From positions 108,309 through 172,308 of the forward strand of contig JAGXIU010000002.1 in the NCBI GenBank assembly GCA_024635455.1: a stretch of DNA of 64,000 nucleotides, given 5' to 3'. Each line of letters starts with the position of its first letter. The stretch's first letter is position 1. Below are positions 3,835-57,775 of the stretch, one piece after another. Source of the stretch: Candidatus Saccharimonadota bacterium. GTDB lineage: Bacteria; Patescibacteriota; Saccharimonadia; Saccharimonadales; SLHW01. Below the pieces are notes generated by a model that ran no database searches, was not told the origin of the DNA, and was given only the letters and a program-made list of their open reading frames with translations. A program made the translations under genes and the position numbers.

Positions 3835-3842
3835 GTCATTAG

Positions 3843-3850
3843 TGTAAGAT
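3843..3850 (+). promoter_or_regulatory. TG + TAAGAT -10 box, 6 nt before ATG 3857
   Basis: The sequence reads agTGTAAGATacgtatATG, with no SD. Confidence 0.4.
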
Positions 3851-3856
3851 ACGTAT

Positions 3857-4990
3857 ATGGCTACATACACAGTAATTCAAGACATCGAGGCAGAGGACAA
3901 ACTATTTGGTCCACTTACGCTAAAGCAGTTTATTTTTGCCTGTATTGCGATTATATCTGGGTATCTATCGTTTTGGTCGATCGTTAATAACCTGGTTTTT
4001 TTACTGGTAGTATTTCTTCCGCCTGCATTATTTTTTGGCGCTTTGGCGTTTCCGTGGAGTAAAGACCAAACCACAGAAGTCTGGATGATGGCTAAGCTTC
4101 GCTTTTTCTTCAGGCCACGAAAGCGTATATGGGACCAATCCGGCATCAGGCACTTAGTTACTATTACTGCGCCGAAGCGAGAGCGCCATGAATACACAGA
4201 CGGCCTCAGCAACGCTGAAGTTAAAAGTCGCTTGCGAGCGCTTGCTGATACCATTGATAGTCGCGGCTGGGCAGTCAAAGGTGCAGATGTAAACATACAG
4301 GTACAGCCATCTTATTTGTCGGGCCAGTCAGATAGATTAGTAGCCTCTGGTGGCACACCTCAGCAAGTTGTTGGCTATGATGTTCGCTCAACTGATGACA
4401 TGCTTGATGAAAAGAATAATCCAGAAGCACAAAAGCTGGACCAGCTTATGAAAGAGTCTGACTCAAGTCATCGGACTCAGCTGATCAATAACCTTGCTTC
4501 TCAGCAGAAAGACCAACAATCTGCTGCGGGACAAAAAGAGGCTAATGATTATTGGTTTATGCGTCAAAATGACGCACCGCAGCAATCAAACCTCGCTACA
4601 TATGGTGCAAGTCCAGTTATAACGCCAGGGCAAAAAACTACGAACAACTCCACGGACAGCAAGAGCCTGACGACCGAAGAACAAGCAACCCTTGATAAAA
4701 TACACAAACAGAAAAAAAATCCTGATCCGACAATAAGTCACCTTAAAACCATTAAGCCACTCGCCGAGCAAGAAGCTGAAGATGCCGCCAGAAAAAAACA
4801 GATGCAAGCAGACCAGAAAACACAAACAAAACCGTCTGTGCCAACAGCAAAACCACCTGGTAATCAAACCGCTAAAGCTGATATACTTGGACTTGCACAG
4901 AATGACGACCTTAGCGTAGAGACAATTGCTCGACAAGCCAAAAAGCAGAGCGAACCTCCCGTTGATGAAGTTGTGGTATCCCTTCATTAG
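3857..4990 (+). CDS. PrgI/VirB3-like small T4SS membrane protein with extended Q/K/T-rich tail
   Basis: 377 aa. The N-terminus YTVIQDIEAEDKLFGPLTLKQFIF followed by two TM helices is the PrgI-family signature. It lies just upstream of the VirB4 region, as in Gram-positive-type T4SS. Confidence 0.65.
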   Translation: MATYTVIQDIEAEDKLFGPLTLKQFIFACIAIISGYLSFWSIVNNLVFLLVVFLPPALFFGALAFPWSKDQTTEVWMMAKLRFFFRPRKRIWDQSGIRHLVTITAPKRERHEYTDGLSNAEVKSRLRALADTIDSRGWAVKGADVNIQVQPSYLSGQSDRLVASGGTPQQVVGYDVRSTDDMLDEKNNPEAQKLDQLMKESDSSHRTQLINNLASQQKDQQSAAGQKEANDYWFMRQNDAPQQSNLATYGASPVITPGQKTTNNSTDSKSLTTEEQATLDKIHKQKKNPDPTISHLKTIKPLAEQEAEDAARKKQMQADQKTQTKPSVPTAKPPGNQTAKADILGLAQNDDLSVETIARQAKKQSEPPVDEVVVSLH

Positions 4991-5044
4991 GAAATTGCAC
5001 AACGCTCGTCATTTATCAGAAGTAGGTGGGTACACTAAACACAT

Positions 5045-5929
5045 ATGAATCCAAATAACACACCAAATCAGCCGAACCCTCCACAGCAACAAACGGCAGG
5101 CCAGTATGGAGCTTATGGTCCACAACCTGCTGTAGCCTCAGCTAGTGGCTATAGCTCACCGCAGGCGGGTCAACAGGCTCCGCACATACAGACGAAGTCA
5201 AACCCCAATAGCACGCAAAATACACTGCAGATTGCTGAGATTCGTGATGGTATTGTCATTATGAATGACGGTTCCTTTCGAAGTGTGGTTATGGTTAAGT
5301 CAATCAACTTCGACCTGATGAGCCCGCAAGAGCGCGAAGGAGTTGAATTTGGCTACCAGGGCTTCCTAAACTCACTGTACTTTGACATACAGATTTTTGT
5401 TCGTTCACAAAAAGTCGACATGCGGCCGTACATAGAAAAGCTCGATAAGATTCGTACTGAGCATGACAATATGCTCTTAGCGTTACTAATGGATGATTAT
5501 CTTGGTTATATCGAAAACCTTGTTATGCAAACAAACATCATGGATAAAAAATTCTATGTGATTATACCGTATTATCCAGTAGCTACCATGAAAAGCGCTG
5601 TAGCCTCTAGTAAAGGTTTTTTTGAAAACATGAAACGTAGTATTGCCGGTGATACTGAGCACCATGTAGTAGTGAATGAAGCAGACCTGAATGCAGCAAA
5701 AGATGAGTTGCGCAATCGTGTACAAGCAACGCTGGCTGGCCTGCAGGACTGTGGTGTAGCTGGGCTTCCGCTAGACACGCAAGAATTAATTGAACTGTAT
5801 TATGACACCTATAACCCTGATACCGCGACCCGTCAGCAGCTCAAAAATTTCGACGATCTCACGGCGCCTATCGTAGGTAAAGGCCAAGGTCAGGCAAGCC
5901 AGCCAAACCTTAATAAGGAGCTCCAGTAG
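5045..5929 (+). CDS. Hypothetical T4SS-associated protein (P/Q-rich N-terminus, globular C-terminal domain)
   Basis: 294 aa. TACACT lies 8 nt before the ATG. The TAG stop abuts the virB4 ATG (TAGATG at 5927-5932), so the two genes are coupled. Confidence 0.5.
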   Translation: MNPNNTPNQPNPPQQQTAGQYGAYGPQPAVASASGYSSPQAGQQAPHIQTKSNPNSTQNTLQIAEIRDGIVIMNDGSFRSVVMVKSINFDLMSPQEREGVEFGYQGFLNSLYFDIQIFVRSQKVDMRPYIEKLDKIRTEHDNMLLALLMDDYLGYIENLVMQTNIMDKKFYVIIPYYPVATMKSAVASSKGFFENMKRSIAGDTEHHVVVNEADLNAAKDELRNRVQATLAGLQDCGVAGLPLDTQELIELYYDTYNPDTATRQQLKNFDDLTAPIVGKGQGQASQPNLNKELQ

Positions 5930-7849
5930 ATGGCTTTTGGTAAAAAGAAAAAACAAACCGTTACCGACCCGGTTGCTATCGCCCAACAACAACAAGCGCA
6001 AGAACAGCAAGAAGTTGGTGCTGCTTTCCAGAAGGGTGTTACTGCACTGCGGGACTTTATTGCACCGAGCTCGATTGAGCTCGAATCAACACACTTCCAA
6101 CTCGGTACACGTTATGCGCGTACCTACTATGTGTATGGTTATCCTCGCCAGGTATACACCGGCTGGCTCAGCAGCCTAATAAACCTTGATGAGATTATGG
6201 ACATGTCGATGTTTATCTATCCGGTGGAGAGCCAGGTTGTACTAGAAAGCCTGCGCAAAAAAGTCGGTCAACTAGAAGCTGGTATCCAGATAGAGGCAGA
6301 AAAAGGTCGCGTCCGTGACCCGGGTAAACAAGCAGCTATTCAAGATGCCGAACAAATGCGAGACAAGTTGCAGGTAGGAGAGGAGCGGTTCTTCCGCTTT
6401 GGGTTGTACTTTACTATTTACGCTTCCTCTATGGACGAGATGGAGTTCGTTTCACACAAAGTTGAGTCGATGCTAGGGCAACAGTTGGTATATTCTAAGC
6501 CAGCAACCTCCCAGCAAGAACAAGGACTTAATAGCACCATACCCCAGTTTACTGATCAGCTTCAGATACGTCGTAACTTTAGCACCGGTGCACTTTCTAC
6601 AAGCTTCCCGTTCACATCTGCTGACCTTACCCAGGAGAACGGTATTCTCTACGGTGTAAATATGCACAACTCTGGGTTGGTAATATTTGACCGGTTCTCG
6701 CTAGAAAACGGCAACTCAGTGGTGTTTGCTAAATCCGGTGCTGGTAAGTCATTCACCGTAAAGCTCGAGGCACTGCGTAGCATGATGCTTGGGACTGAAA
6801 TATTTATCATCGACCCAGAGAATGAATACCAACGAATGGCAGAAGCGGTCGGAGGTGCCTACGTACAGCTGAGCCTTAACTCAAACGTGCGCATTAATCC
6901 ATTCGATCTACCAGAGGTTATCGATAGCGACGAAGCAGAAAACGCCCTTCGGAGCAACCTTATAACGCTTCATGGCTTACTGCGCTTGATGATGGGTGGT
7001 GCGCAAGCTCAAATGACTGGCGGTGGCGCAACGACTATGCCCGCACTCACACCTGCAGAAGAGGCAGACTTGGATGCAGCCCTCATAGAAACGTACTCAA
7101 AAGCAGGCATCACCAACGACCCACTCACGCACAAATCACTGCCACCAACAATCAGTGACCTATACGACACACTACTTCACATGGGTGGACTTGGCCCGCA
7201 ACTGGCACAACGACTCAGGAAGTATACGAGCGGCACGTTTGCTGGAATTTTTTCACAACAATCAAACATCAATATTAATAATCCATTAGTGGTGTTTAAT
7301 ATTCGTGATCTCGAAGATGAGCTACGACCGGTAGCGATGTATATAATCTTGAACTTTATATGGAACAAAACCAAAGCTGATAAAAAGCGTCGCATGTTGA
7401 TAGTTGATGAAGCCTGGCAACTTATGAAATATGAAGACTCAGCAAACTTCTTATTCAGTCTCGCAAAGCGTGCCCGTAAGTACAATCTTGGTATAACTAC
7501 TATCACGCAGGATGTCGAGGATTTCATGGGGTCACGTATGGGGCGGGCAATTGTTGCGAATGCTTCAATGCAGATCTTGCTGAAACAATCACCTTCAGCT
7601 GTCGATGTGCTCTCCGACGTATTTAAGCTAACGAGCGAGGAAAAGAAGCGACTCAGCCAGTTTCCGGTTGGTCAGGGGTTATTCTTTGCTGGTCAAAACC
7701 ACGTACACATACAGATTACTGCTAGCCCCACAGAAACCGGCCTTATCACCACCAACCCAGACCAGGTTAAACAGATTGAGCAAGCCGGTGAAATGCAAGG
7801 ATCGCAAGGTAGCGTTGACCTAGGCAACCGACTCACTCCTGGCGTATAA
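5930..7849 (+). CDS. virB4: VirB4/TraE/PrgJ-family T4SS ATPase
   Basis: 639 aa. Walker A is FAKSGAGKSFT and Walker B is RRMLIVDEAWQL. The N-terminal domain motif YARTYYVYGYPRQVYTGWL is typical of Gram-positive-type VirB4. Confidence 0.9.
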   Translation: MAFGKKKKQTVTDPVAIAQQQQAQEQQEVGAAFQKGVTALRDFIAPSSIELESTHFQLGTRYARTYYVYGYPRQVYTGWLSSLINLDEIMDMSMFIYPVESQVVLESLRKKVGQLEAGIQIEAEKGRVRDPGKQAAIQDAEQMRDKLQVGEERFFRFGLYFTIYASSMDEMEFVSHKVESMLGQQLVYSKPATSQQEQGLNSTIPQFTDQLQIRRNFSTGALSTSFPFTSADLTQENGILYGVNMHNSGLVIFDRFSLENGNSVVFAKSGAGKSFTVKLEALRSMMLGTEIFIIDPENEYQRMAEAVGGAYVQLSLNSNVRINPFDLPEVIDSDEAENALRSNLITLHGLLRLMMGGAQAQMTGGGATTMPALTPAEEADLDAALIETYSKAGITNDPLTHKSLPPTISDLYDTLLHMGGLGPQLAQRLRKYTSGTFAGIFSQQSNININNPLVVFNIRDLEDELRPVAMYIILNFIWNKTKADKKRRMLIVDEAWQLMKYEDSANFLFSLAKRARKYNLGITTITQDVEDFMGSRMGRAIVANASMQILLKQSPSAVDVLSDVFKLTSEEKKRLSQFPVGQGLFFAGQNHVHIQITASPTETGLITTNPDQVKQIEQAGEMQGSQGSVDLGNRLTPGV

Positions 7850-7860
7850 TGTAGTAGATT

Positions 7861-10800
7861 ATGAATAGCGACTTAAAGGAACGAGAAGTAGGTGCCGGTC
7901 AAGATAATGGTGATCCTGCCTGGTATGCAGGAAGAACTTCCTACGAAGACGACTTAGCCGCAGCCGAAAACGGCAACACGGATAAAAAAAAGGATTCTGA
8001 AGAGACACCTAAGAACACGTCGCCGCAAGACGATACCGGGTCGCACCAACAAAAAACGGAAGACGTATCGTATGTAAAAAAACTTCTCCTTCAAAAAAAG
8101 AAAGGTTTTGCCATATTGCTGCTAGGGGGGTTGGTGGGTGGTGGTTTTGGCTTTTTCACGATAATAGCTGGCCCTTTGCAGATTATGCACGCTGGTCAAC
8201 TTCTTCAAAAATTTCACTTATCAAGAGTTGATGATTTTATGGATGGCAGATCTGGAAGATTTGTAAAATACCTCGCCGCTGGAACACCCGCAAGGGGGAG
8301 GCTCGGCTATGCATCAGATAAATACGCAACGCGATGGGAAAATAGAATGCTCCGAGACACTGGCCTGAAATCGGTCTACACTCAACGCCCTAATCAGCGG
8401 TTTGTTGGCTACCAAATCGTAGACTCTGTTAAAGCGCAATCTATACTTTCTGACCTCGAAGCTGACGGAATCAACCCCAGTAGCTCAATAACAGAAGATG
8501 TAGTAGATATTGATGGTGTCAACCGTAATAGCAGCCAGGGTGATTTTATTGATTTATCCGACGAAAGACTTCGGAATAGGAGATCAGTTGTGCGTGTAGC
8601 AACTAGGGGTACGGGTGTTAATCGGCTGTCCAGCTCACTAGGATCCAGAATGTTGATTCGGCGAGGTGGCGTAGATTTTGCGCCACTGAAAAATATACGT
8701 AGAGCAGCCGGTGAGAGCACGACTGCCTATTATCGAAAAGTAAAGGATGCGCTTGCTCAAAAATATAGAACAGGCAATACCAGCCCACGTATTCGAGCCG
8801 CGCAAGTTGAAGAGCCTGATGCAGATGGAGAAACAACACGAAATACACAACCGGATAGCGCCGAACTCATTGATGATGTTAACAACATCGACCTCGACTC
8901 CAGCGAAGGGAGGTCACGTTTGCGCAATAATGTAAAACTTAATCTAATCTCCAAGGTTGGAAGTATCACCGCGGTAGTCGGTGTGGTGTGCACTGTTAAT
9001 GCAATTGGTGATCAAGCTGATGAATTGAAGCAGGAGCAAATTGCCACGCAGATGCGTATGGGTATGGACTTTGTTACAACGGCTTCTCAATTACAGGCGA
9101 TGGACAACTTAAATATCGATGAGGTCGGTGCGATGGCATCAAGGATGCATGATGGGGAAACATCATTCTTTAGCGCCAACAGCATCCAGGCCAATGATGG
9201 CAGAGAGGCCGTTGGTCCTGAGTTAGCAGACAGTGCGAAGATTGAATCCCTGGAGTCGCAACCTTTAGCGTTTGAAGTTATATCTGGCATACCAGGGGTA
9301 ACTAGTGTTTGTGCAGTAGATGAAGCGGTCGGAAATCTACCTATTATCAAACAGATTGGTGAAATTGGTGAAGCTGCAATTAACATTGGTTTAGGTGCGA
9401 TTGGCACAAGCATCGAAGATCTAATGGAGTCAGTAGTCAATGCGATTGCAGGTGAGCTAGTGAATGTAGACGCTGAAGGAGCTGAGCTTGGCGGCCTGGC
9501 TGACCAAGGTGTTGCTCTTGCATCAAATGAACAAATGCTATCTGTTGGAGGTAATCCGTTAACGGACAGCGAGCTGGCAGCCGTACAGCAGACAGTAAAC
9601 CAAACGGAGAAAGATGAATATACACAAAAAGGTTTTCTCGCTCGAACCCTTAACATATATGACATTGACTCACTGCTTGGACGACTCGCATACTCGTTTA
9701 ATTCTATATCTATGAAATCTTTTATTACCCAACCAACGAAACTATTGTCATTTGCCACCACACCGACGGTGTTTGCCGCCAGCAATTATGACTATGGTTT
9801 CGATATGTACGGCTTCAGTATTGAAGAGCAGCAAGACGAACGGTTTGCAGACCCATTTGAAAACGCAGACTGGGTTGAGACTGGCGACAGACTAAACACA
9901 CTTAATAGCGTCTACGGTGGCTGCTTCGGTATACGGATAGACCCGGGAACCGGTGCGATACTGAGCAGCGATGATGCCTTTGACTACGCCGAGCGGGCTG
10001 AGATGGATGAATGCACAAACGGAAGCAGTCAAGCGTTTGGTGAGGAGGGTTTACTGCGGTTTCGATTTTACATAGCCGACATGATGACCGATCATACGTT
10101 AGCATGTTATGAAGGTGAGGCTTTTTCGTGTCAACAAGTTGGAATGGCGGGCGGGCAAAGCCGGACTACTGGACAAGCTAACGCAAGCTCAAGTATTGTA
10201 GGCGATCCTTACACTGACGGGGTAGATATCGCCTGTGCAGACGGCACCAATGACCTTGGCACGTCCCTAGATAGCGGAATGTCGCAAGCCTATAGCTCTG
10301 GTGAGGCTTACGATATTCGGTTCTGTGAGATACCAAACATCCCGAGCATCGGCCAAGCAGATACACCTGGTGGCAGTTTTTCAACCCCCGGAGCTAGTGG
10401 GTTTGCAATTGTTAGCTCAAGAGTCTCAGGAGCCTGGTACGCATTAGCCGAAGACGCCAAAGCTGATGGAATAGACCTCCAAGCGTTTAGCTCATTTCGC
10501 TCGATGGCTCACCAGACATCAAACTATGAAAGCAGCGCGGCGTGCCCTGGCGCTAACTGTCTCATTGCGAGACCAGGATATTCCAGTCACCAAGCGGGTG
10601 TTGCTATAGATTTCGAAAATGGAATGCGTGGTGTAACGGGAGGGTCAACCTGTGAAACACGAGCTAAAGCCACGGACAGCGAGGCTTGGAGCTGGCTAAA
10701 AGACAATGCTGAGAATTATGGCTTTAAGCAGTACTCTCGAGAAGCATGGCACTGGGATGCTCTACCTTCTGATAACAGGTGTGGAACGCTACAGATATGA
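7861..10800 (+). CDS. Large bitopic protein with C-terminal VanY/M15-type peptidoglycan peptidase domain
   Basis: 979 aa. A TM lies near aa 83-105 (GFAILLLGGLVGGGFGFFTIIAGPL). The C-terminal SSHQAGVAIDF ... EAWHWD matches the zinc-ligand motifs of the D-Ala-D-Ala carboxypeptidase (VanY/M15B) fold. Confidence 0.75.
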   Translation: MNSDLKEREVGAGQDNGDPAWYAGRTSYEDDLAAAENGNTDKKKDSEETPKNTSPQDDTGSHQQKTEDVSYVKKLLLQKKKGFAILLLGGLVGGGFGFFTIIAGPLQIMHAGQLLQKFHLSRVDDFMDGRSGRFVKYLAAGTPARGRLGYASDKYATRWENRMLRDTGLKSVYTQRPNQRFVGYQIVDSVKAQSILSDLEADGINPSSSITEDVVDIDGVNRNSSQGDFIDLSDERLRNRRSVVRVATRGTGVNRLSSSLGSRMLIRRGGVDFAPLKNIRRAAGESTTAYYRKVKDALAQKYRTGNTSPRIRAAQVEEPDADGETTRNTQPDSAELIDDVNNIDLDSSEGRSRLRNNVKLNLISKVGSITAVVGVVCTVNAIGDQADELKQEQIATQMRMGMDFVTTASQLQAMDNLNIDEVGAMASRMHDGETSFFSANSIQANDGREAVGPELADSAKIESLESQPLAFEVISGIPGVTSVCAVDEAVGNLPIIKQIGEIGEAAINIGLGAIGTSIEDLMESVVNAIAGELVNVDAEGAELGGLADQGVALASNEQMLSVGGNPLTDSELAAVQQTVNQTEKDEYTQKGFLARTLNIYDIDSLLGRLAYSFNSISMKSFITQPTKLLSFATTPTVFAASNYDYGFDMYGFSIEEQQDERFADPFENADWVETGDRLNTLNSVYGGCFGIRIDPGTGAILSSDDAFDYAERAEMDECTNGSSQAFGEEGLLRFRFYIADMMTDHTLACYEGEAFSCQQVGMAGGQSRTTGQANASSSIVGDPYTDGVDIACADGTNDLGTSLDSGMSQAYSSGEAYDIRFCEIPNIPSIGQADTPGGSFSTPGASGFAIVSSRVSGAWYALAEDAKADGIDLQAFSSFRSMAHQTSNYESSAACPGANCLIARPGYSSHQAGVAIDFENGMRGVTGGSTCETRAKATDSEAWSWLKDNAENYGFKQYSREAWHWDALPSDNRCGTLQI

Positions 10801-11978
10801 TAAAAAATAGATTCAAGAATCTTAGTATATTATTTTTTGTAGTTATATTTTCAGTGTTTATGGCTATACCTACAATGGATGCCATAGCACTATCACCAAA
10901 ACAACGTCGCATCATTGATTCAGGAGCCTACTATTATAATTCTGAATCCGACAACACTTTTGGCGTCACGCCAGGCAGCGGTAGTGGCTGCTATACATTA
11001 AATGCAATTACAGTAAACGATATCCAAGGACTCACTCAAGCAATTGATAAATATTTTAATGATAATGCACCTGCTAGCTCGCCCTTAAGGGGGTTGGGAA
11101 GTTCCGTGGTAAGTGGATCGGTGCGTGCTGATATAAACCCGTTTTTTATTGTAACTATTGCCCAAAAAGAATCCGCCTTCGGAACAGCTGGAGTTGCGAC
11201 AAATGGCTCAAACAACTCCTTCGGCAGAACTGCGACCGATTCGCAACCCCACGTAGAAACAAATCGTAAGTGGTACAAATATGACTCGTTTCAGGAAAGC
11301 CTAAATAGAAGCAGTGCCGACAAAGACGACCAACCTGAATACATGAAGCGTAAGTTTCTAAATGAACTCGAAGCTTCTTCAATTGAAGATGTTATGAATG
11401 TATACGCACCGCCTTCAGAAAACGATACTGAACTCTATATCGATCAAATGCGCGGCAGAATTGACGAGTTAATTGAGCTAGCTGGAGATAGTATAAGTTG
11501 CGGAACAGGTTCGGGTTGGATGTGGCCACATGGAAGTAACGCCGGTCGAATAACAAGCTGTTTCGGTAGCAGGGACGCACCACTTGCGAGGGCATCAACA
11601 AACCACCGTGGCGTAGATATTGCTGATGGTACTGGGACACCTATATACGCTGCGGCTGCAGGAGAAGTCACCTATAGTGGAAACCTCGGTAACGCTGGCC
11701 TATTAGTGAAAATACGCCATGCAGATGCGGAAGGTGAAACACTAGACACGCGGTATCTGCACAATAGCGCTTCACATGTGCGTGTCGGCGATAGGGTTGA
11801 GGCGGGTCAACACATTGCAGATGAAGGTGCCAGCGGAAATGTGACTGGTGCACACCTGCACTTTGAAATCATCAAGAGCGATACGAAACTTAATCCACTC
11901 AACGAACTAACAATTCCAGAGGGCATCACGATCACAGGCTCAAACTGTAATTCATCCAATACTGGAGGACAATCATGA
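10797..11978 (+). CDS. Secreted/anchored M23 (LytM) peptidoglycan endopeptidase with possible lysozyme-like N-domain
   Basis: I moved the start to ATG 10797, which forms an ATGA overlap with the upstream stop; the track start 10779 is GTG. M23 motifs are HRGVDIA, GTPIYAAAAGEV and GAHLHFEI. The weak E-S motif IVTIAQKESAFGT sits in the N-terminal half. Confidence 0.85.
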   Translation: MIKNRFKNLSILFFVVIFSVFMAIPTMDAIALSPKQRRIIDSGAYYYNSESDNTFGVTPGSGSGCYTLNAITVNDIQGLTQAIDKYFNDNAPASSPLRGLGSSVVSGSVRADINPFFIVTIAQKESAFGTAGVATNGSNNSFGRTATDSQPHVETNRKWYKYDSFQESLNRSSADKDDQPEYMKRKFLNELEASSIEDVMNVYAPPSENDTELYIDQMRGRIDELIELAGDSISCGTGSGWMWPHGSNAGRITSCFGSRDAPLARASTNHRGVDIADGTGTPIYAAAAGEVTYSGNLGNAGLLVKIRHADAEGETLDTRYLHNSASHVRVGDRVEAGQHIADEGASGNVTGAHLHFEIIKSDTKLNPLNELTIPEGITITGSNCNSSNTGGQS

Positions 11979-12934
11979 GAACAAAGCTCATTCTCGTGCT
12001 TTTGCTTATTATATTGGTTTCTATAGGCGGGTATTTTCTATTTAGAAATCCGACTCTTTCGAAAATACACAATGGTAATACGCGCTACCATCAATATATT
12101 GGGGATGAACTTATACTGCTCGTTGATACAAACTGGAACGTTAAGCAAATTGATACAGAAGGCACAGATATAAACGATTTTGGTAGTATCGAGAAGGGGA
12201 GCTATAACTATATGTTTAGCCCTACTGGTGATTACGTAAGTTATGTTTATGAAGATGAGGTATACATAAAAAGCCTCAAGGAAGCTGATGTACAGAAAAC
12301 CACTATACCGGCGCAAACTTATACTTGGCAGTCAGATAACGTAATAACTTTTATTAATATATCGAACCAACGAGTCGATAGTACTTTTTATAACCAGGGG
12401 GTATTATCAACATTTGATGTTATTACTAAAGAACAAAAAACAATCGGAAAAGAAACAATCGCAGCGACGAGCCTACACCCACTAGACGATACAACTGGAA
12501 TACTGACAATTGCTTATGGGGAGGGTGGCGAGAACAGTACCGCTATAGCTAGTTATAGCCTCGTGGATGGATCAACCGAACTATTAAATACTGAGGTTGC
12601 ACTGGACTCAACCTACTACTCTTATGGTTACTTTTCATATAAAAATAGTTCCACGAGTCAGATAACTTATTTTGACAATACAAGCCAGCAACAAGAAGTA
12701 GCAACTCCAGAGAACTACACCGACATATACGCACTTTTTGACAATGAATACATCATTGCTGAAGCACAAAACTCAAACCGTGAAATCGTTTTAAGAGATG
12801 TTTCTGAGCAAACAGAAAAAACGCTCTTCACGATAAATAAAATTGGTGGCATTCAATCAATTACTTACAACGACAATTGGCTAATCGTACAAACGACTGA
12901 TGCTTTATATAGCGGAAAGGTTGGTAGCCTATGA
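11975..12934 (+). CDS. Bitopic hypothetical protein, beta-rich ectodomain (PD40/TolB-like repeat hint)
   Basis: 319 aa. The start shows ATGA coupling and GGAGG lies 6 nt upstream. It has an N-terminal TM. FSPTGDYVSYVYEDEVYI resembles a PD40 repeat. Confidence 0.5.
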   Translation: MRTKLILVLLLIILVSIGGYFLFRNPTLSKIHNGNTRYHQYIGDELILLVDTNWNVKQIDTEGTDINDFGSIEKGSYNYMFSPTGDYVSYVYEDEVYIKSLKEADVQKTTIPAQTYTWQSDNVITFINISNQRVDSTFYNQGVLSTFDVITKEQKTIGKETIAATSLHPLDDTTGILTIAYGEGGENSTAIASYSLVDGSTELLNTEVALDSTYYSYGYFSYKNSSTSQITYFDNTSQQQEVATPENYTDIYALFDNEYIIAEAQNSNREIVLRDVSEQTEKTLFTINKIGGIQSITYNDNWLIVQTTDALYSGKVGSL

Positions 12935-13581
12935 ATAAAAATAAAGTTGTAATCCTGTTACTGGCGGTGTCTGCAATATCATTGCTTATGTTTTTATTTA
13001 TCCAAACAAACAGCCGTTCGTTTACAATAACCGATTCTGCACCTAGTCAAGATGAAAGCAATGTGGCAATAGATAGTACTATAGAGATTTACTTTTCTAA
13101 AAATATTGAACGAGTAGGATTGTCATCAATAAATGACCCAAGTGTTGACTATAGTGAATACGAGATGAGAATAGAAACACGCCCGACCATAGTTGCTGAT
13201 GTTTCTATTGACGGCGGAACGCTTCGTATTAATCCAAGGCACACATTACTGGAGAACCAAGAATATGACATATTCCTATCAAATATTACGAGCGATGATG
13301 AGGAGATGGTAGATCAATATGGCTTGTCCTTTACGACAGGCCAGGATGAATCAGCCCGGGCTCAATTTATACGGTCGCTTCCACTTTACCAGACCAACTA
13401 TAACGTAACCTATTCATCTACAAGAAATGCATTTACGGTACAGGTAACTGGAGGGGATGTAGAGAGCGTCACGGAAAGTGCTTATGAATTATTGCGCGAA
13501 AACGCTATAGATGTAGATAATGAAACAATTATTATTGAGACTTTGCGCACCGAACAAGGTGGTGGATCACCAGCCGGCTAA
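12931..13581 (+). CDS. Bitopic hypothetical protein with SbsA/Big_5-like Ig domain
   Basis: 216 aa with ATGA coupling and an N-terminal TM. ITDSAPSQDESNVAIDSTIEIYFSKNIE resembles the start of bacterial Ig-like (SbsA-type) domains. Confidence 0.5.
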   Translation: MNKNKVVILLLAVSAISLLMFLFIQTNSRSFTITDSAPSQDESNVAIDSTIEIYFSKNIERVGLSSINDPSVDYSEYEMRIETRPTIVADVSIDGGTLRINPRHTLLENQEYDIFLSNITSDDEEMVDQYGLSFTTGQDESARAQFIRSLPLYQTNYNVTYSSTRNAFTVQVTGGDVESVTESAYELLRENAIDVDNETIIIETLRTEQGGGSPAG

Positions 13582-13585
13582 TAAC

Positions 13586-14641
13586 TCAGTGGCTTAGCGG
13601 AATAATGTTGCAGTTTTGCATGAAGTGTTGCACGACGATATCGGCGTCGGTCGTAGTGATAAACGCCTGATAATTTTGCAGAAAATCCGTTAAATGTCGT
13701 CGACGAGAACCATCGAGCTCGCTAAACACGTCATCGAGCAAAAGTACTGGCTTTTTATTATAGGCTTTCTCAAGTAGCTTAGCTTCCTGGATTTTCAGCG
13801 CCAGAATAGCTGTACGCGCCTCACCACGCGACGCAACCTCGCGAGCAGGGTAGTCATCAAACCGAACCTCAATATCGTCTCTGTGTGGCCCTATACTGGT
13901 AAAGCCTCGTTCTACATCATTATGGAAGCTTGCCTTGAGCTTACGTAACATATCGTTGCTGTAGCTTTCTAGCTGGCACGGTGTTTTGTATGAAAGCGTC
14001 AACACAACTGAAGAATCAGCTATATCTGTGTAAGCAGCTTGTGTATCGTCTGCCAGGGACGATAATAGTTTTTGCCGAGCTTCGGCTATATATCCACCGA
14101 GTTCGCTTAAGCGTACATCCCAAACAAAGACGTTATCGACGGTTGCATTTCCGCTCTTCAGTAGCGCGTTTCGTTGCGCTAAAGTTCGCCTATAATGACG
14201 CCGATGTTGCAGAAAGTTCGGCTGTATCTTCTCTAGCAAAGTATCAAAGTACTCACGACGCCCCTCTGGACTCCCATGCAACATAGCTAGATTGTTTGGC
14301 TCAAATATAACCACTGGTAAAAACCGCTGCCGGGACAGTCGCGTTAAGGTGGTGTCATCTATGACGAATTGTTTGGTGGTTTTGTTGTTTTCCCGCCTGA
14401 GCTTGAGTGTTCGCTTACTGTCATCAAGTTGTATATCAACTCGACCCCACTCAGATTGGTGTCGTATTAAATCCTCGTCACTGTTTCGGTAGGACTTTCC
14501 TTGAGCGCTGACTAATATAGACTCTATTAAGTTTGTCTTACCACTCGCATTCGGTCCGACCACAATATTGACAGCTGGGTCCAGCTCAAAGCTATCATCC
14601 TGGTAAGACCGATAGTGCTGCAAACGAATTGAATTAATCAA
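13586..14641 (-). CDS. recF: DNA replication and repair protein RecF
   Basis: 351 aa with a TTG start. Walker A is GPNASGKTNLIESI and the Walker B-like motif is VLLLDDVFSELD. The gene order dnaA-dnaN-recF is conserved. Confidence 0.9.
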   Translation of the reverse strand: MINSIRLQHYRSYQDDSFELDPAVNIVVGPNASGKTNLIESILVSAQGKSYRNSDEDLIRHQSEWGRVDIQLDDSKRTLKLRRENNKTTKQFVIDDTTLTRLSRQRFLPVVIFEPNNLAMLHGSPEGRREYFDTLLEKIQPNFLQHRRHYRRTLAQRNALLKSGNATVDNVFVWDVRLSELGGYIAEARQKLLSSLADDTQAAYTDIADSSVVLTLSYKTPCQLESYSNDMLRKLKASFHNDVERGFTSIGPHRDDIEVRFDDYPAREVASRGEARTAILALKIQEAKLLEKAYNKKPVLLLDDVFSELDGSRRRHLTDFLQNYQAFITTTDADIVVQHFMQNCNIIPLSH

Positions 14642-14733
14642 AGTTTTGTCCTCTGCCTACTTATCACTGTTCTCCAGCTACTCATTGAACCCCTTGGCTC
14701 AACATCATCAAAGCTTTTTATGCGCATAGTCTT

Positions 14734-14739
14734 ATTCTA
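14734..14739 (-). promoter_or_regulatory. TAGAAT -10 box upstream of recF, 6 nt before a 29-codon ORF
   Basis: On the minus strand the sequence reads tgTAGAATaagactATG (ATG at 14727). Confidence 0.35.
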
Positions 14740-14788
14740 CAGAAGCAAGTCGACAGATGACAGACAACTAAAGAGTTGGATAGAGGAG

Positions 14789-15880
14789 TTAGCTTTTTAG
14801 AGGCATGATTACATGCAGATAATCATCTTGTTTTGGGTCACGTATGAGTGATGGTTCTAGTTTGCCATTAAAGCAGAATTCTACATCGCTACCATTAAGT
14901 ACTGATAGTACGTCTATGAGGTAACGTGAGTTAAGTGTTATCTCGCCCTCACCAGTTACGTCAGCGTCTGCTTTTGAGGTATTTTCACCAAGTTGTGAGG
15001 CAACAGAACGCACTTGCAATGCTTTGTCTGATTCATCAGCTGACACTACGACACTGCCGGCACTTTCGCGAGCGAATAAGCTTGCGACCTTGGTAATGCT
15101 GGCAAATTCCTGCTTCTTCAGTTTCGCTGTGGTATTAAAGCTTTTTGGTATAAGTTTGCGATAATCTGGGTAATTACCCTCAATAAGACGAGTAACTAAC
15201 TCCACCTCACCAACCGTAAACATCACCTGCTGGTCATCGTGTAGTATCTCTACATCATCGTTACTATCAGACACTATTCGCAGGAGATCCTGCATAGCAT
15301 TAGCTGGCACAAGCAATGAAACGTCTTGTTTAGCTTCACCAAGTTTCTTTTCTGCTAAACGGTAACTATCGGTTGCCACCATAAACAGTTGCCCTTGGTA
15401 GCTGTGAATGTATACACCGGTCAAAACCGGACGTGCTTCATCACTAGAGGCAGCAGTTACTACCTGCTGGAGCGCTTCCTTGACCATTTTAGCTGGTAGC
15501 TTCCAGGCAGTTTTATCACTAATTGCTGGCATAACAGGGAAGTCCTCTGCACTAATTCCATTTATTGAAGAGCTGTAAGAACCAGATTTCATGCGCAACT
15601 TAAATTCATCTAACTTGAGATCTATAACACCGCTTGGTAGTGAACCTACAAAGTCTTGTACTAAACGAGCTGGCACAGTGATTGCACCTTGTTCACTTAT
15701 TTTTGATCCAATGTATCGGGTTATAGCAATGTCGAGGTTAGTAGCTGATATTGCAACCCGGTTGTCTATGGTTTTAATTAGTACGTTTGCGAGTACCGGT
15801 AGCGTGCCTCTATTAGTCGCTACTCGACCTACTGTACTAAGTGCTTTTGATAAGTTTTCTTGGGTTACTTGTAATTTCAT
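14789..15880 (-). CDS. dnaN: DNA polymerase III beta sliding clamp
   Basis: 363 aa, consistent with a three-domain clamp. AAGGAG lies 7 nt upstream (15888-15893). The gene lies between dnaA and recF. Confidence 0.95.
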   Translation of the reverse strand: MKLQVTQENLSKALSTVGRVATNRGTLPVLANVLIKTIDNRVAISATNLDIAITRYIGSKISEQGAITVPARLVQDFVGSLPSGVIDLKLDEFKLRMKSGSYSSSINGISAEDFPVMPAISDKTAWKLPAKMVKEALQQVVTAASSDEARPVLTGVYIHSYQGQLFMVATDSYRLAEKKLGEAKQDVSLLVPANAMQDLLRIVSDSNDDVEILHDDQQVMFTVGEVELVTRLIEGNYPDYRKLIPKSFNTTAKLKKQEFASITKVASLFARESAGSVVVSADESDKALQVRSVASQLGENTSKADADVTGEGEITLNSRYLIDVLSVLNGSDVEFCFNGKLEPSLIRDPKQDDYLHVIMPLKS

Positions 15881-16144
15881 TGTGAAGCTCCTTTATATAT
15901 AGAAATAAATTTATTTAAAATTAGTTTTTGTTTATATAAGCTGTGTGGAAGATGTGTATAAGAGAGATTATAAGAAGTTATTTTTATAAATAAGCAGCGG
16001 ATAAGTCGAGTACAAGACTTGTACAAGACGCGGATAAGTCGCTGACTTATACCCAAGGATTTACCAACCGCTGCAACCATGTTGATAAGTCGCTGACTTA
16101 TACCCATTCGTGTGCACAGGTTGTGTGTAAGGTATGCACAGGTT
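15881..16144. promoter_or_regulatory. oriC part 1 (dnaA-dnaN spacer): AT-rich unwinding candidate plus DnaA-box-like repeats
   Basis: Positions 15892-15939 are 45/48 A/T. Box-like sites are TGTGGAAGA (15944), three GGATAA/TGATAA-type sites (15997-16008, 16031-16040, 16082-16090), and TGTGCACAG/TATGCACAG (16111, 16132). Confidence 0.6.
16033..16106. repeat. Two identical 23-bp repeats GATAAGTCGCTGACTTATACCCA (16033-16055, 16084-16106)
   Basis: The two copies match exactly and start 51 bp apart. Each contains the inverted repeat ATAAGTC-gct-GACTTAT. Confidence 0.95.
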
Positions 16145-17509
16145 CTACGCATATAACCGCTCCTTAATCGTATCGATTACGTCCTTTATTGACGGGTCAA
16201 AGGATATCTCACGCTCGATTTTTTCTACCGAGTGGATGGCGGTGGTGTGATCTTTTCTACCAAGTTCACGAGCAATCTTCGGAAAACTTAAATGCAGCTC
16301 GCTACGGAGCATGTACATCGCAATTTGCCTCGGAACCACAATGTCCCGGTCGCGTTTCGGTCCCAATATATCCTCAATCGCTAAGTCAAAATACTTTGCA
16401 GTACGCTCCACGACTTGTTTTGCACTGATGTGTTTTGGTCGTGAGTTGGTGGCACCGAGTAACGACTTAGCTATCGGTACATCTGGCGTTAATCCACGCA
16501 TTTCACAAAAGGCGAGTAGCTGATTTAAGACACCCTCTAGCTCACGAATATTGGTCTGCACTAATTCAGCTAAGTAGCCAACAACTTCTTGACTCAACTC
16601 AGCACCACTATCGTGCGCTTTCGTCTGAATAATGGCGCAACGTGTTTCATAGTCTGGGTTTTGCATATCTATAGACATACCCCAGGCAAAGCGACTCTTC
16701 AGTCGATCTTCAAGCGTTGGTATATCGCGTGGCGGCTTATCGCTACTTATAATAATCTGCTTATTTGCTTGATGGAGCGCATTGAAGGTGTGAAAGAATT
16801 CTTCCTGTGTCTTATCTTTGCCAGCAATAAACTGCATATCATCAATAATCAGTACGTCGGCATTGCGGTAGTAGCTGGCAAAGTCAGTGTTTTTCTTAAA
16901 ACGCACCGCATCGATAAATTCTTGTACAAATTGTTCAGTCGACACATAGACAATATGAGCATCTTTGTTGTTGCGGATGACCGCGTTACCCACAGCCTGT
17001 ATAAGGTGGGTTTTACCAATACCAACGCCACCATACAGGAAGAGTGGATTGTACTTTTGCCCAGGGTTTTGCGCAATGGCCTGGCAAGCCGCATAAGCTA
17101 ACTCGTTCCCTGAGCCGACAATAAAGTTTTCAAAGGTATAGCGTTCATTTAGTCCTTGGCGATACTTATGCGCCAGTGACGAAGTGGCCGATGAGGTGGT
17201 GTGAGACTCCGGAGTTTCTATATGTAGTACCGGTTGGTCATTGAGTTCTTGCTTCTTTGGTACAAAGCCGGAGTGGATCTTATACTCTATTTCATTGGGT
17301 GCTAGGCCGTTTTTTTCGAGCGTAGTCTTTATAAGGTCATTAAACTTTTTCTCGAGTTGCTGTTTTATGAACACGTTTGGCACACCAATGACGACGCGCT
17401 CATTATCTTGCTGAAGTAGGCGAGTGTTCTTAAACCACGTCACATAGCTCGCTCGAGTAACAGATAACTCTATTTCTCCCAGCACTGCTTGCCATAGGTG
17501 GTCCTGCAT
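16145..17509 (-). CDS. dnaA: Chromosomal replication initiator DnaA
   Basis: 454 aa. AAA+ Walker A is GGVGIGKTHL and Walker B is LIIDDMQF. The C-terminal DNA-binding domain contains ...KDHTTAIHSVEKI. Confidence 0.97.
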   Translation of the reverse strand: MQDHLWQAVLGEIELSVTRASYVTWFKNTRLLQQDNERVVIGVPNVFIKQQLEKKFNDLIKTTLEKNGLAPNEIEYKIHSGFVPKKQELNDQPVLHIETPESHTTSSATSSLAHKYRQGLNERYTFENFIVGSGNELAYAACQAIAQNPGQKYNPLFLYGGVGIGKTHLIQAVGNAVIRNNKDAHIVYVSTEQFVQEFIDAVRFKKNTDFASYYRNADVLIIDDMQFIAGKDKTQEEFFHTFNALHQANKQIIISSDKPPRDIPTLEDRLKSRFAWGMSIDMQNPDYETRCAIIQTKAHDSGAELSQEVVGYLAELVQTNIRELEGVLNQLLAFCEMRGLTPDVPIAKSLLGATNSRPKHISAKQVVERTAKYFDLAIEDILGPKRDRDIVVPRQIAMYMLRSELHLSFPKIARELGRKDHTTAIHSVEKIEREISFDPSIKDVIDTIKERLYA

Positions 17510-55276: not shown

Positions 55277-56992
55277 CTACAACACTCCACCTGGAATAAT
55301 CCACTGCAAGAATGCGAAGATAAATAGATAGGCAACTAGAGCAATCAATGCATTTGTAATGCGTTTCTTGGCTGCTGCGACAGCTTGAGGATTGCCGCTG
55401 GCAGATGAGTACTGTATACCACCGAGTACTATCATGGCGACAACAACGAGGCCAACTAAGACAGACAGTGCGTCTGTGAATACTCGAACGTAGAATATAA
55501 TTTTGCAGTTGTCTGGCGTCAAGACATCTCCATCACAGTCGGCTTCTATTTGCTGACGGTATGCTTCTGGATTAGTTACGCCGAGCACAACTGGGTCAAC
55601 AATAACCCCATTGGCCTCGCCGTCTTCATCAAGCGCTCCACCATCTGTGACACTGTAGGATACCTCAAGCGCTCGCTTACCTTTGTGCATGACGCTTTCA
55701 ATTGATGCACTCGATATATTAGTGTATTCATTTGTCTGCAAGTTGTACTTCCGTAGTACAGCGCCAGCCGGGTCGGCTTCCGTGTAGTAATGTTTGGTAA
55801 TACGAGCTGTTGAGCCAGCCTCATCACAATTGAGCGTGAAAGACATAATGCCAAAAGGGTAGATATAGGTATTATCGTCGTCTCGTGAGCTTGTATAAGT
55901 CATAAAGCCAGCCGACTCAGTGGAACAGCCAGCTACTCGCATAGATACAAAAGAGCCACTTGTGCTACTGAATACATTGGTTATATCGTCTCCTTCTGTG
56001 ACGTTGTCTATCGGCACCGCTACAGCAGAGCCACCACCACCGGTTGGATCAGCATCGTCATAATAGCCGTCTGGTAGTTGGTCGACAACTTCGAAGGAGA
56101 GAGTTTTACTCGTTCCTTCGGTTACTGGTGTCCCTGGCGGGTAGTAGCCATTAATACAGCTCAATCTGAGATAATATTGTCCGAGCTCAGAACCGACATT
56201 AAAAGTAGCCGTACCTCCACCACGGCTGGTTTCTATGAGTGATCCTGTATCGTTTGCGGTCTGTTTCTTGTACAGTGCACATTCATCAGGGGCGTCGCCT
56301 TCCCAGTGTGACCAGCTGGCGGTCAAGTCGCCACCACTCGGTATCTTGGCGCTATCGGTAATTTGTTGCCCCTCGTGACTTAGTTCAAGTGTCATACGTG
56401 GACGATTTTCCAAACCAACGTATACAGGGCTAGATGTATAGATCGGCCCTGTACCTACTTTACGTGAATTGCCTGCCGGGCCACAGTACGTTAAGTCATT
56501 CGGGTAATCACGTGCACAACGAGGATCTCGCTCGTATGTCTCGATATATGCAGAGTAGGTGTAGTAGTTCCCACGCTCAACGTTATAATCAATGTGAGTT
56601 AATGCGCTACCACGACAAGTATCGTGGACGGGAAAGTCTTTGCGGCAACTGGCAATTTCAGTGCCGTCTCGAAGCAAGGTATAGACAAAAAAAGGAGTAT
56701 CGCTTGAATCACTACCATAATAGGTTGGTGTTGCATTCGAATATGGCCAAGCTTCAGATTTAATGTAGAGATCACCTTGCTGGTCTCCTTGGGATGCTGG
56801 AAGGTATTTAGCAGGATAACCAGCAATTGAACTAATTCTATGTATACGTATATCATTATACGACTGCGCATCCGCCTTATCTGATGCTATACTCACATAC
56901 CCAAGTAGGCCGACAAGTAGCAATGCAGCGCAGAAGAAGAATATATGCTTTCTGGTAACGTGTATTTGTGTTCGATAAGTTGATAACTTCAT
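55277..56992 (-). CDS. Secreted ~570-aa surface protein ending in a VirB2/TrbC-like T4SS-pilin helical hairpin
   Basis: I moved the start to ATG 56992 (MKLSTYRT...), which gives a signal peptide ending ASDKADA. The C-terminus is LSVLVGLVVVAMIVLGGIQYSSASGNPQAVAAAKKRITNALIALVAYLFIFAFLQWIIPGGVL. That is two TM helices joined by a short polar loop. Confidence 0.65.
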   Translation of the reverse strand: MKLSTYRTQIHVTRKHIFFFCAALLLVGLLGYVSIASDKADAQSYNDIRIHRISSIAGYPAKYLPASQGDQQGDLYIKSEAWPYSNATPTYYGSDSSDTPFFVYTLLRDGTEIASCRKDFPVHDTCRGSALTHIDYNVERGNYYTYSAYIETYERDPRCARDYPNDLTYCGPAGNSRKVGTGPIYTSSPVYVGLENRPRMTLELSHEGQQITDSAKIPSGGDLTASWSHWEGDAPDECALYKKQTANDTGSLIETSRGGGTATFNVGSELGQYYLRLSCINGYYPPGTPVTEGTSKTLSFEVVDQLPDGYYDDADPTGGGGSAVAVPIDNVTEGDDITNVFSSTSGSFVSMRVAGCSTESAGFMTYTSSRDDDNTYIYPFGIMSFTLNCDEAGSTARITKHYYTEADPAGAVLRKYNLQTNEYTNISSASIESVMHKGKRALEVSYSVTDGGALDEDGEANGVIVDPVVLGVTNPEAYRQQIEADCDGDVLTPDNCKIIFYVRVFTDALSVLVGLVVVAMIVLGGIQYSSASGNPQAVAAAKKRITNALIALVAYLFIFAFLQWIIPGGVL

Positions 56993-57073: not shown

Positions 57074-57775
57074 ATGGACCAAAACTCATCACCCAATAAG
57101 ACAATTAATAATCAAAAAAAAGACGATCACTCCTATGATTTCATCATGGATCAGTCACAACAAAATCAAACACCAGAGCAACCAAAAAAGAAGCGCTTGT
57201 TTGTAACCATATCAATTATTATAGTGCTGCTTTTGCTCGGTGGTCTATTGTGGCTGGTTGTAGCGAGTGATGATGCCGCCGACCAAGCAAGCGAACAAAC
57301 GCAAGGAACGACGGCCGACCAGCTTACGACACAATTGGAGTTTGAGGATCCGCTCTTTCGGATGGATGTACCAGGCATATGGTTGGTATCAGAAGATTAT
57401 GAGCCAGGTGTCACACCAGTCTTTTTTAGCGGACCAGCCACCCATGAGATAGAAGAGTTTAATGATAGCTCAGAGACAATTACCATGACAGTAAAAGAGT
57501 TTGCGAGCGAAGTATATCCTAACGAGGCAGTTGATTCATCAGACAAAGTTATCGAACAGGACGACTATGAGAATAACGGCGTAACGTATACGTACCGGGT
57601 GTTAGAAAATGCCGTTGATGGTGGCAATGAAGACGGCCCTCGTCGAGCTGTTGCTCGCAACGTCGCGAGACAAGGTGACCGTGTGCTTGTAGCTGAAGTA
57701 GCAGTGCCAGCTGAGGCGTGGAATCACTACCGTGAGCTTATCAACCAAAGCATGCGCTCGCTTGAGCCTAGATAA
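57074..57775 (+). CDS. Bitopic hypothetical protein
   Basis: 233 aa. A polar N-terminus is followed by one TM (LFVTISIIIVLLLLGGLLWLVVA) and an acidic ectodomain. Confidence 0.5.
   Translation: MDQNSSPNKTINNQKKDDHSYDFIMDQSQQNQTPEQPKKKRLFVTISIIIVLLLLGGLLWLVVASDDAADQASEQTQGTTADQLTTQLEFEDPLFRMDVPGIWLVSEDYEPGVTPVFFSGPATHEIEEFNDSSETITMTVKEFASEVYPNEAVDSSDKVIEQDDYENNGVTYTYRVLENAVDGGNEDGPRRAVARNVARQGDRVLVAEVAVPAEAWNHYRELINQSMRSLEPR

Follow-up and report, generated by a model that had tools for sequence, protein, structure and literature searches.

Type IV secretion systems (T4SSs) that lie near dnaA and are accompanied by adjacent arrays of pilin genes are already known in Saccharibacteria (PMC10633639, PMC12102498, PMC12857230), and both T4SS and pilin array proved essential in Southlakia epibionticum, so far the only Saccharibacterium in culture to be tested (PMC10633639). 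In diderm bacteria, VirB3 and VirB6 recruit the VirB2 pilin by means of their transmembrane segments, and VirB4 extracts it (PMC12624023). Among 3,035 Patescibacteria genomes surveyed, no PrgB-like adhesin was detected at the T4SS loci (PMC12102498), and the papers on Patescibacteria T4SSs consulted here (including PMC10633639 and PMC12102498) make no mention of pilin-module fusions. Here, we analyzed a 64-kb stretch of contig JAGXIU010000002.1 from a Candidatus Saccharimonadota bacterium (hereafter the window, at its full length of 64,000 nucleotides) and focused on a gene at positions 55277–56992 that encodes a 571-residue protein with a putative leader, a beta-rich passenger, a choice-of-anchor U domain, and a C-terminal T4SS pilin module. 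Our preferred reading, which we hold at a probability of about 0.5, is that this protein is a bimodular minor pilin shown by the T4SS as an adhesin, with its passenger placed N-terminal to a complete pilin module of the type encoded by the first array gene (gene 1, hereafter type 1).

The protein shares features with several described systems and departs from each of them. As in the Saccharibacteria pilin arrays, which are composed of PF18895 proteins (PMC10633639, PMC12102498), its C-terminal 89 residues constitute a full member of the family, of the gene-1 subtype, and the same genome possesses an array and an MPF-FATA-like T4SS beside dnaA. Unlike the array pilins, it is a 571-residue precursor with immunoglobulin (Ig)-like and choice-of-anchor U domains, is encoded ~55 kb away from the array, and has a partner gene of its own. 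With the VirB2/TrbC/TraA pilins it has in common a leader, two hydrophobic helices, and a short basic loop, in a genome that also encodes VirB3-like, VirB4, and VirB6-like proteins; unlike them, it does not match PF04956, is several times larger, and belongs to a single-membrane host, and its polymerization is only proposed here. The pilin-like proteins Mbov_0395/MMCAP2_0565 of mycoplasma integrative and conjugative elements (NF045849) display a weak similarity to its hairpin (27–33 bits), but the score falls under the 40-bit cutoff, so that it is not a member, and those proteins have only ~80 residues. The nearest parallel in design is offered by the modular type IV pilins, or bulky minor pilins (Streptococcus sanguinis PilB/PilC and CofB/TcpB), low-abundance subunits in which an adhesive domain is carried on a pilin module. 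The likeness concerns the design principle only, namely a functional domain grafted onto a polymerization module, since fold and machinery are unrelated, the extra domain of these pilins is C-terminal while here it is N-terminal, and instead of an N-terminal class III (prepilin peptidase) leader and a hydrophobic alpha-1 pilin helix our protein has a Sec-type leader (ADA/Q) and a C-terminal pilin module. Finally, a role in target-cell contact for the T4SS is proposed here, as for VirB5 in diderms and PrgB in Gram-positive bacteria, although there is no relationship in sequence or architecture to these proteins, both of which are devoid of a pilin module.

The C-terminal module has the sequence hallmarks of a type-1 array pilin

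The gene lies on the minus strand and runs from an ATG at 56992 to a stop codon at 55277–55279. The reading frame stays open upstream of this ATG to a TTG at 57082; the ATG at 56992 was taken as the start because the resulting product is identical to the database protein P0001, which is encoded on a 373-kb contig. The gene and its parts are as follows:

55277–56992, minus strand: whole gene, encoding leader, beta-rich passenger, choice-of-anchor U domain, and type-1 pilin module (open reading frame and translation)
56864–56992, minus strand: putative signal peptide, residues 1–43 (read from the sequence; array pilins have similarly long leaders)
56405–56863, minus strand: N-terminal passenger region, residues 44–196, family-specific, with Cys 116/126 and 159/170 (AlphaFold2 model)
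56078–56404, minus strand: predicted Ig-like beta-sandwich domain, residues 197–305, with Cys 238/279 (AlphaFold2 model and a weak profile match)
55985–56077, minus strand: acidic Gly-rich linker, residues 306–336, beginning DGYYDDADPTGGGG (predicted local distance difference test [pLDDT] score below 50)
55574–55984, minus strand: choice-of-anchor U domain, residues 337–473, with Cys 356/389 (NCBIfam profile)
55280–55546, minus strand: type-1 T4SS pilin module, residues 483–571 (PF18895, type-1 profile, and identity to the array pilin P0013)

The module comprises a disulfide loop (C486...C496), a first transmembrane helix, the basic loop GNPQAVAAAKKR, a second transmembrane helix, and a C-terminal PGG. 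In the whole protein, the Pfam family PF18895 (T4SS_pilin) matched residues 505–565 (E 4.9e-9; 36.6 bits; gathering cutoff, 26.6), a search with just the module gave 42 bits, and the homologs P0002, P0003, and P0059 also exceeded the cutoff, such that all four full-length family members pass. The AlphaFold2 model predicts two long helices (residues 493–530 and 535–565), and a model of the module alone, based on a deeper alignment, concurs (mean pLDDT 76). The inter-helix loop, IQYSSASGNPQAVAAAKKRI, contains three basic and no acidic residues. Thus, both the models and PF18895 agree with the original prediction, which had described a pair of hydrophobic helices with a short basic loop between them and a T4SS pilin domain; the C-terminal sequence quoted there matches the translation exactly.

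To place the module among the array pilins, a hidden Markov model (HMM) of type 1 was built from 71 T4SS-linked gene-1 pilins, leaving the query out. On this model the 571-residue protein scored 124.4 bits, at the median of the 71 array pilins themselves (124.1; range 100.7–141), while among the pilins of the source genome array gene 1 scored 121.5 bits and the other five 46–53. Residues with a conservation of 90% or more among the array type-1 pilins are all retained in the module, including GGIQY, AFLQW, the AAK..I loop, and the terminal PGG; the module thereby combines the score range of the subfamily with its disulfide loop and its C-terminal FLQW-x-x-PGG. In pairwise comparison, the product of array gene 1 (P0013, 173 residues) is 67% identical to the module over 93 residues, and the other five array pilins are 30–37% identical. 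By these sequence measures, the module is a full type-1 pilin and not a generic anchor. A recent in-genome copy of array gene 1 was considered as its source and rejected, as the module is nearer to P0010 (77%), a short pilin of another organism, than to P0013; recent duplication is also ruled out by the presence of the fusion in homologs whose passengers are just 36–53% identical.

As a separate observation, type-1 pilins (A2; loci L009–L088) end in an invariant P-G-G-[VI]-[LF], which none of the other array types has and which may signal processing or recognition.

Relatives of the module number 5229 among 1.84 billion representative proteins. Throughout the best 150 of them the module is located at the extreme C-terminus, the median protein length is 190 residues, and more than 300 residues are reached only in the fusion family and in one tandem-pilin fusion. 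The latter, P0067, consists of 555 residues with six tandem pilin hairpin modules, like an entire array in a single polypeptide. In the array-linked type-1 pilins, the hairpin displays ~50% mean pairwise identity and the N-terminal extension, which is hypervariable and usually Cys-rich, ~18%; precursors span 127–284 residues (5th–95th percentile), with a maximum of 337. The 571-residue protein, outside the ~100–280 residues usual for PF18895 proteins, is the far end of the type-1 pilin series and not a separate kind, and compared with the array-linked extensions its passenger is the only one here with recognizable domains. Taken together, the conserved module, the variable ectodomain, and the T4SS linkage described below suggest that the first array pilin is a display scaffold.

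Type-1 pilins are linked to a T4SS operon

A T4SS operon is present at the left end of the window, identified by Pfam matches and by a gene order identical to that of two other loci (L005 and L007), in both of which the operon borders on a pilin array:

1129–11978, plus strand: T4SS operon of the source genome
1129–3834, plus strand: VirB6/TrbL_3-like protein
3857–4990, plus strand: PrgI (VirB3-like)
5045–5929, plus strand: TraC-like protein
5930–7849, plus strand: VirB4
7861–10800, plus strand: VanY hydrolase, 979 residues, with a C-terminal VanY domain
10779–11978, plus strand: M23 peptidase and glucosaminidase protein, 399 residues
–2706 to –119 (L008 1467–4054), minus strand: six-gene PF18895 pilin array, ~120 bp off the left edge of the window

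The array pilins (136, 138, 152, 98, 128, and 173 residues) are encoded divergently from the operon, which is presumed to be the machinery that acts on the pilin modules. The two large cell-wall hydrolases that end it (7861–11978) probably replace VirB1; the first 850 residues of the VanY protein have no assigned family. Between the array and the VirB6-like gene, the plus strand at 61–1062 encodes a protein of 333 residues that crosses the membrane once and is acidic and of low complexity in its N-terminal half. No Pfam or NCBIfam family was found for it, and in other genomes this position is empty or occupied by another gene.

A distance of 41.7 kb separates the 571-residue gene from the T4SS block (1129–13581, measured to its end), and virB4 is 47.4 kb away; recF, dnaN, and dnaA (13586–17509) lie in between, and the neighbors of the 571-residue gene are nucleotide-sugar and glycosyltransferase genes. 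These coordinates match the original prediction, which had put the gene ~42 kb from the VirB4 locus, beyond the origin and in a glycan region. The ~55 kb that separate it from the pilin array are a departure from the array location habitual for the PF18895 family. A second pilin module was not detected in any open reading frame of the window, either by single-sequence or by HMM searches, and a promoter and terminator scan around the gene gave results at chance level.

A module scan of species-representative genomes retrieved 80 loci, nearly all from metagenome-assembled genomes of Saccharibacteria or Saccharimonadales, of which 72 had enough upstream DNA to be informative. In all but one of these (71/72), the type-1 pilin heads an array of pilin reading frames and adjoins, in divergent orientation, a VirB6-like/PrgI/TraC-like/VirB4 operon. 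The exception (L033 5924–6601) is a 225-residue type-1 pilin with a Cys-rich extension, encoded beside HtpX, LemA, and D-Ala-D-Ala carboxypeptidase-like genes; no T4SS genes were found in the 5.8 kb upstream, and the contig ends at the pilin gene. A generic membrane anchor occurring in genomes without a T4SS, the outcome that the original prediction had set against its own proposal, is thus not the picture obtained.

The passenger is combined with different anchors

In the collections searched, the fusion family numbers just five members and is thus very rare. The closest full-length homolog, P0002, shares 53% identity with the 571-residue protein, and P0059 and P0003 share 35–38%; a metagenome scan with the passenger alignment added one fragment, on a 1.6-kb contig, and a full-protein scan of the species-representative genomes retrieved no relative. 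This fragment (L089 1011–1620) is the closest extra member, 79% identical over the N-terminal part, and seems to be frameshifted after ~69 codons, which could reflect a pseudogene or an error in sequencing. The passengers of P0001 and P0059 share 36% identity, compared with 60% for their modules; because of these values, the fusion is, as judged from sequence divergence, old and maintained.

In P0003 (L004 943–2688), the passenger is 39% identical to that of P0059, yet it is attached to a different module, with 41% identity over 119 residues to the product of array gene 2 and the motif FLGxPxWYxYLDV. This gene-2 pilin type is the second in the array in 61 loci. The alignment points to a swap of the pilin module on a conserved passenger. 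Since the passenger was kept on both gene-1 and gene-2 types, two pilin types would have been recruited rather than an arbitrary transmembrane anchor.

Besides the three full-length homologs, the only relatives that share the passenger are choice-of-anchor U proteins, one of which is annotated as coming from a Saccharimonadales bacterium. In six of these (P0004–P0009), the choice-of-anchor U domain is followed by TDTG, VNTG, or PNTG, a transmembrane helix, and a basic tail. Their motifs (LTDTG, LVNTG, APNTG, and VPNTG) are sortase-type variants and not canonical LPXTG. In these proteins the domain ends at GVIVDPVGLA, and the alignment with them stops at GVIVDPVxLG, right before their sorting signals. 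From the same position onward, the 571-residue protein has a brief linker, then a Cys-x9-Cys loop, and finally the pilin hairpin. Its C-terminus, a two-helix hairpin ending in PGGVL, contains no LPXTG-like sortase signal. As the position of the anchor equals that of the sortase signal, the protein resembles a surface protein in which the wall anchor looks to have been exchanged for a pilin module. With the sortase-signal proteins (NF041766, Saccharimonadales) it thus shares a domain of ~100–140 residues at 35–45% identity, located before a C-terminal anchor, as well as the multi-domain, beta-rich, and extracellular character of choice-of-anchor U surface proteins; it differs from them in that the two-helix pilin module replaces the xxNTG, transmembrane helix, and basic tail, and in its N-terminal domains.

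The passenger is predicted to contain beta-sandwich domains

The putative Sec leader has a basic n-region, an h-region (FFFCAALLLVGLLGYVSIA), and a probable cleavage site at ADA/QS. It precedes a passenger of ~430–440 residues with beta-sandwich domains and paired cysteines, the ten Cys of the mature protein following each other as consecutive pairs (116/126, 159/170, 238/279, 356/389, and 486/496). From this arrangement, the cysteines of the passenger read as disulfide-paired. In the AlphaFold2 model, residues 100–473 are all-beta, at a moderate confidence (mean pLDDT of the full model, 63). Both the sequence and the model are in line with the original prediction of a leader followed by a Cys-containing, beta-rich domain. 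Three elements did not figure in it, namely the choice-of-anchor U domain, the pilin array outside the window, and a conserved partner gene.

Confidence varies along the passenger. The N-terminal region (residues 44–196) is modeled at pLDDT 30–45 for residues 44–97 and 47–70 for residues 100–196; it yielded no Pfam or NCBIfam family and holds residues that are invariant among the four homologs. The Ig-like domain is better defined, with pLDDT 72–87 at residues 201–280 and a fall at its C-terminal edge, and has a weak match to the Ig-like ChitinaseA_N (E 0.018–0.11). The linker that follows includes a GGGG motif invariant in the four homologs. The choice-of-anchor U domain has mostly pLDDT 75–90, with a brief weak loop at residues 365–371, and was identified by NCBIfam NF041766 at residues 375–472 (68.1 bits; cutoff 32); a literature search found no mention of choice-of-anchor U. 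Foldseek comparison of the full model with PDB and viral structures retrieved only generic Ig/FN3 and integrin-leg matches (template modeling [TM] score <0.2), and these modeled fold matches give no specific ligand. The choice-of-anchor U relatives carry Laminin_G_3, FN3, NIDO, and Ig domains, and lectin domains too, a set of domain types that fits surface binding proteins.

A divergent partner gene accompanies the fusion and has motif relatives upstream of type-1 pilins

Immediately upstream of the 571-residue gene, a divergent gene is conserved in all four homologous loci for which flanking DNA is available (elsewhere at L001 9259–9936, L004 109–789, and L089 225–929):

57074–57775, plus strand: partner gene, 233 residues

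The encoded protein consists of a cytoplasmic N-terminal HSYDFIMDQ, a basic stretch, one transmembrane helix, and an extracellular domain of ~165 residues, and has no Pfam family; its NCBIfam matches to FliL, MapZ, and PknB were dismissed, as they involve the membrane-anchor region only and lie far under the cutoffs. Partner proteins are 27–40% identical among the more distant pairs. A partner HMM gave weak matches confined to the motif and the transmembrane helix (E 6e-6 to 0.03), where the motif reads [DN][YF]xFI[LT]xQ followed by basic residues. A scan for this motif found one instance in the window, six in the 80 loci, and none elsewhere in the DNA examined. All six relatives lie directly upstream of a type-1 pilin and in the same direction (L034, L077, L080, L081, L083, and L086). 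With a short stretch of homology and modest E-values, it is the consistent position that makes the link between partner and array credible. The partner thereby provides a second connection between the unlinked 571-residue gene and the array context, and its conserved position suggests that it probably acts in the handling or assembly of type-1 pilin modules.

Discussion

Our structural and genomic comparisons favor a minor pilin with an adhesive passenger, and a route to the cell surface can be outlined for it. The protein would be exported by the Sec pathway and relieved of its leader, as its N-terminal sequence suggests. The hairpin would then enter the membrane as VirB2 does, with both termini outward and the basic loop in the cytoplasm, as expected from the positive-inside rule and the topology of VirB2/TraA. 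From this membrane pool the module would be recruited by the VirB3-like (PrgI), VirB6-like, and VirB4 machinery, a step suggested by module identity and T4SS linkage; a shared recruitment machinery is plausible because the module is indistinguishable from array gene-1 pilins. Entry into the T4SS surface structure would occur at low stoichiometry and probably at distal or sparse positions, since a passenger of ~440 residues cannot pack on every subunit. In the F-pilus and the T-pilus, both pilin termini are on the outer face of the fiber and the loop lines its lumen, and an N-terminal passenger would therefore point outward. In this position the passenger may touch the surface of the host cell, as its domain types, and the lectin, FN3, and NIDO domains of the choice-of-anchor U relatives, would suggest. 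Display or polymerization of the protein by the T4SS, as put forward in the original prediction, is what we infer from the identity of the module and its T4SS linkage.

Several observations weigh against this proposal. The original prediction had likened the hairpin to the VirB2/TrbC layout; the helix–loop–helix arrangement stood, but the relationship to this family is less well supported, as PF04956 (TrbC/VirB2) gave no match even with E values as high as 10 allowed, and comparison with solved conjugative pilins yielded nothing significant. One array paralogue alone has a faint precomputed PF04956 match. A module profile retrieved no matches among PDB sequences, and the Foldseek matches of the module were non-significant helical hairpins (best E 1.9), the Aeropyrum conjugation pilus (8dfu) ranking fourth (E 2.3; TM score 0.60) in a comparison in which helical hairpins are not discriminating. 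At the genomic level, the gene lies 47 kb from virB4, outside the pilin array and amid glycan genes, the other family members are on short contigs, so that co-occurrence with a T4SS covers the source genome only, and a family of five members cannot be a general component of the system. In size the passenger exceeds the largest array-linked precursor seen about twofold and could block passage through the assembly site, and a choice-of-anchor U domain, which normally stands directly before a wall or membrane anchor, suits plain tethering equally well. Finally, none of the Patescibacteria T4SSs has so far been shown to make a pilus (PMC12857230), so that "pilin" is itself an annotation.

The strongest competitor, which we consider possible and clearly less probable than a T4SS-displayed minor pilin, is that the hairpin, having replaced a sortase signal in this lineage, merely tethers the protein to the cytoplasmic membrane, and that the protein serves at the surface as an ordinary adhesin or binding protein with no involvement of the T4SS. 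The sortase-type signal of P0004–P0009 sits exactly where the pilin module starts, the gene is unlinked to the T4SS and surrounded by cell-envelope glycan genes, and VirB2-type pilins are held in the membrane until they are assembled (PMC12624023), so that a bulky fusion could simply stay there. However, a tether would not be expected to keep all subfamily-specific residues or to score at the median of the array pilins, nor does it account for modules that are better conserved than passengers (60% versus 36% in P0001 and P0059). Moreover, among the hits obtained, the passenger is found on two pilin types and never on a plain transmembrane anchor, and the partner gene has relatives that are linked to T4SS arrays. 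The same evidence of module identity would also serve a T4SS-coupled protein outside the filament, docked on PrgI or the VirB6-like protein as a receptor-binding cap, an initiator or terminator of assembly, or a competitor for pilin flux. The size of the passenger, which speaks against packing in a helical lattice, is in its favor, as is the pre-assembly of VirB5-type tip proteins on VirB6 in diderm systems (PMC12624023), and Patescibacteria are without a known VirB5 or PrgB equivalent. We nevertheless regard docking of this kind as unlikely, given that the data, including the single copy in the window, are compatible with incorporation into a filament too.

Least probable, and in our view improbable altogether, is a module that serves as an export or processing signal and is cleaved as in TrbC/VirB2, releasing the passenger in soluble or wall-bound form. 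The invariant P-G-G-[VI]-[LF] at the extreme C-terminus of type-1 pilins would agree with such a signal, and in the NCBIfam naming convention choice-of-anchor domains typically precede cleaved sorting signals. Against this, neither an apparent nor a conserved cleavage site separates the passenger from the module, short pilins likewise have the linker and disulfide loop as a conserved part of their module, and no processing enzyme was identified. An extended form of the T4SS-displayed minor pilin can also be envisaged, in which the type-1 module is a general T4SS-dependent display scaffold whose passengers switch between sortase anchors and pilin modules, the 571-residue protein is the host-recognition adhesin of the T4SS filament and the counterpart of VirB5/PrgB, and the partner protein with its YxFI motif is a dedicated assembly partner. 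We offer this extension tentatively, as possible but rather unlikely.

For the biology of Saccharibacteria, the 571-residue protein represents the first concrete candidate for an adhesin shown by their T4SS. It would also provide a taggable handle for asking if the pilins ever exit the membrane, if the T4SS makes a fiber, and what such a fiber binds. The rarity of the fusion family limits its direct importance; the gene-1 pilin pattern of a conserved module, a hypervariable Cys-rich ectodomain, and T4SS linkage, in contrast, extends to many genomes.

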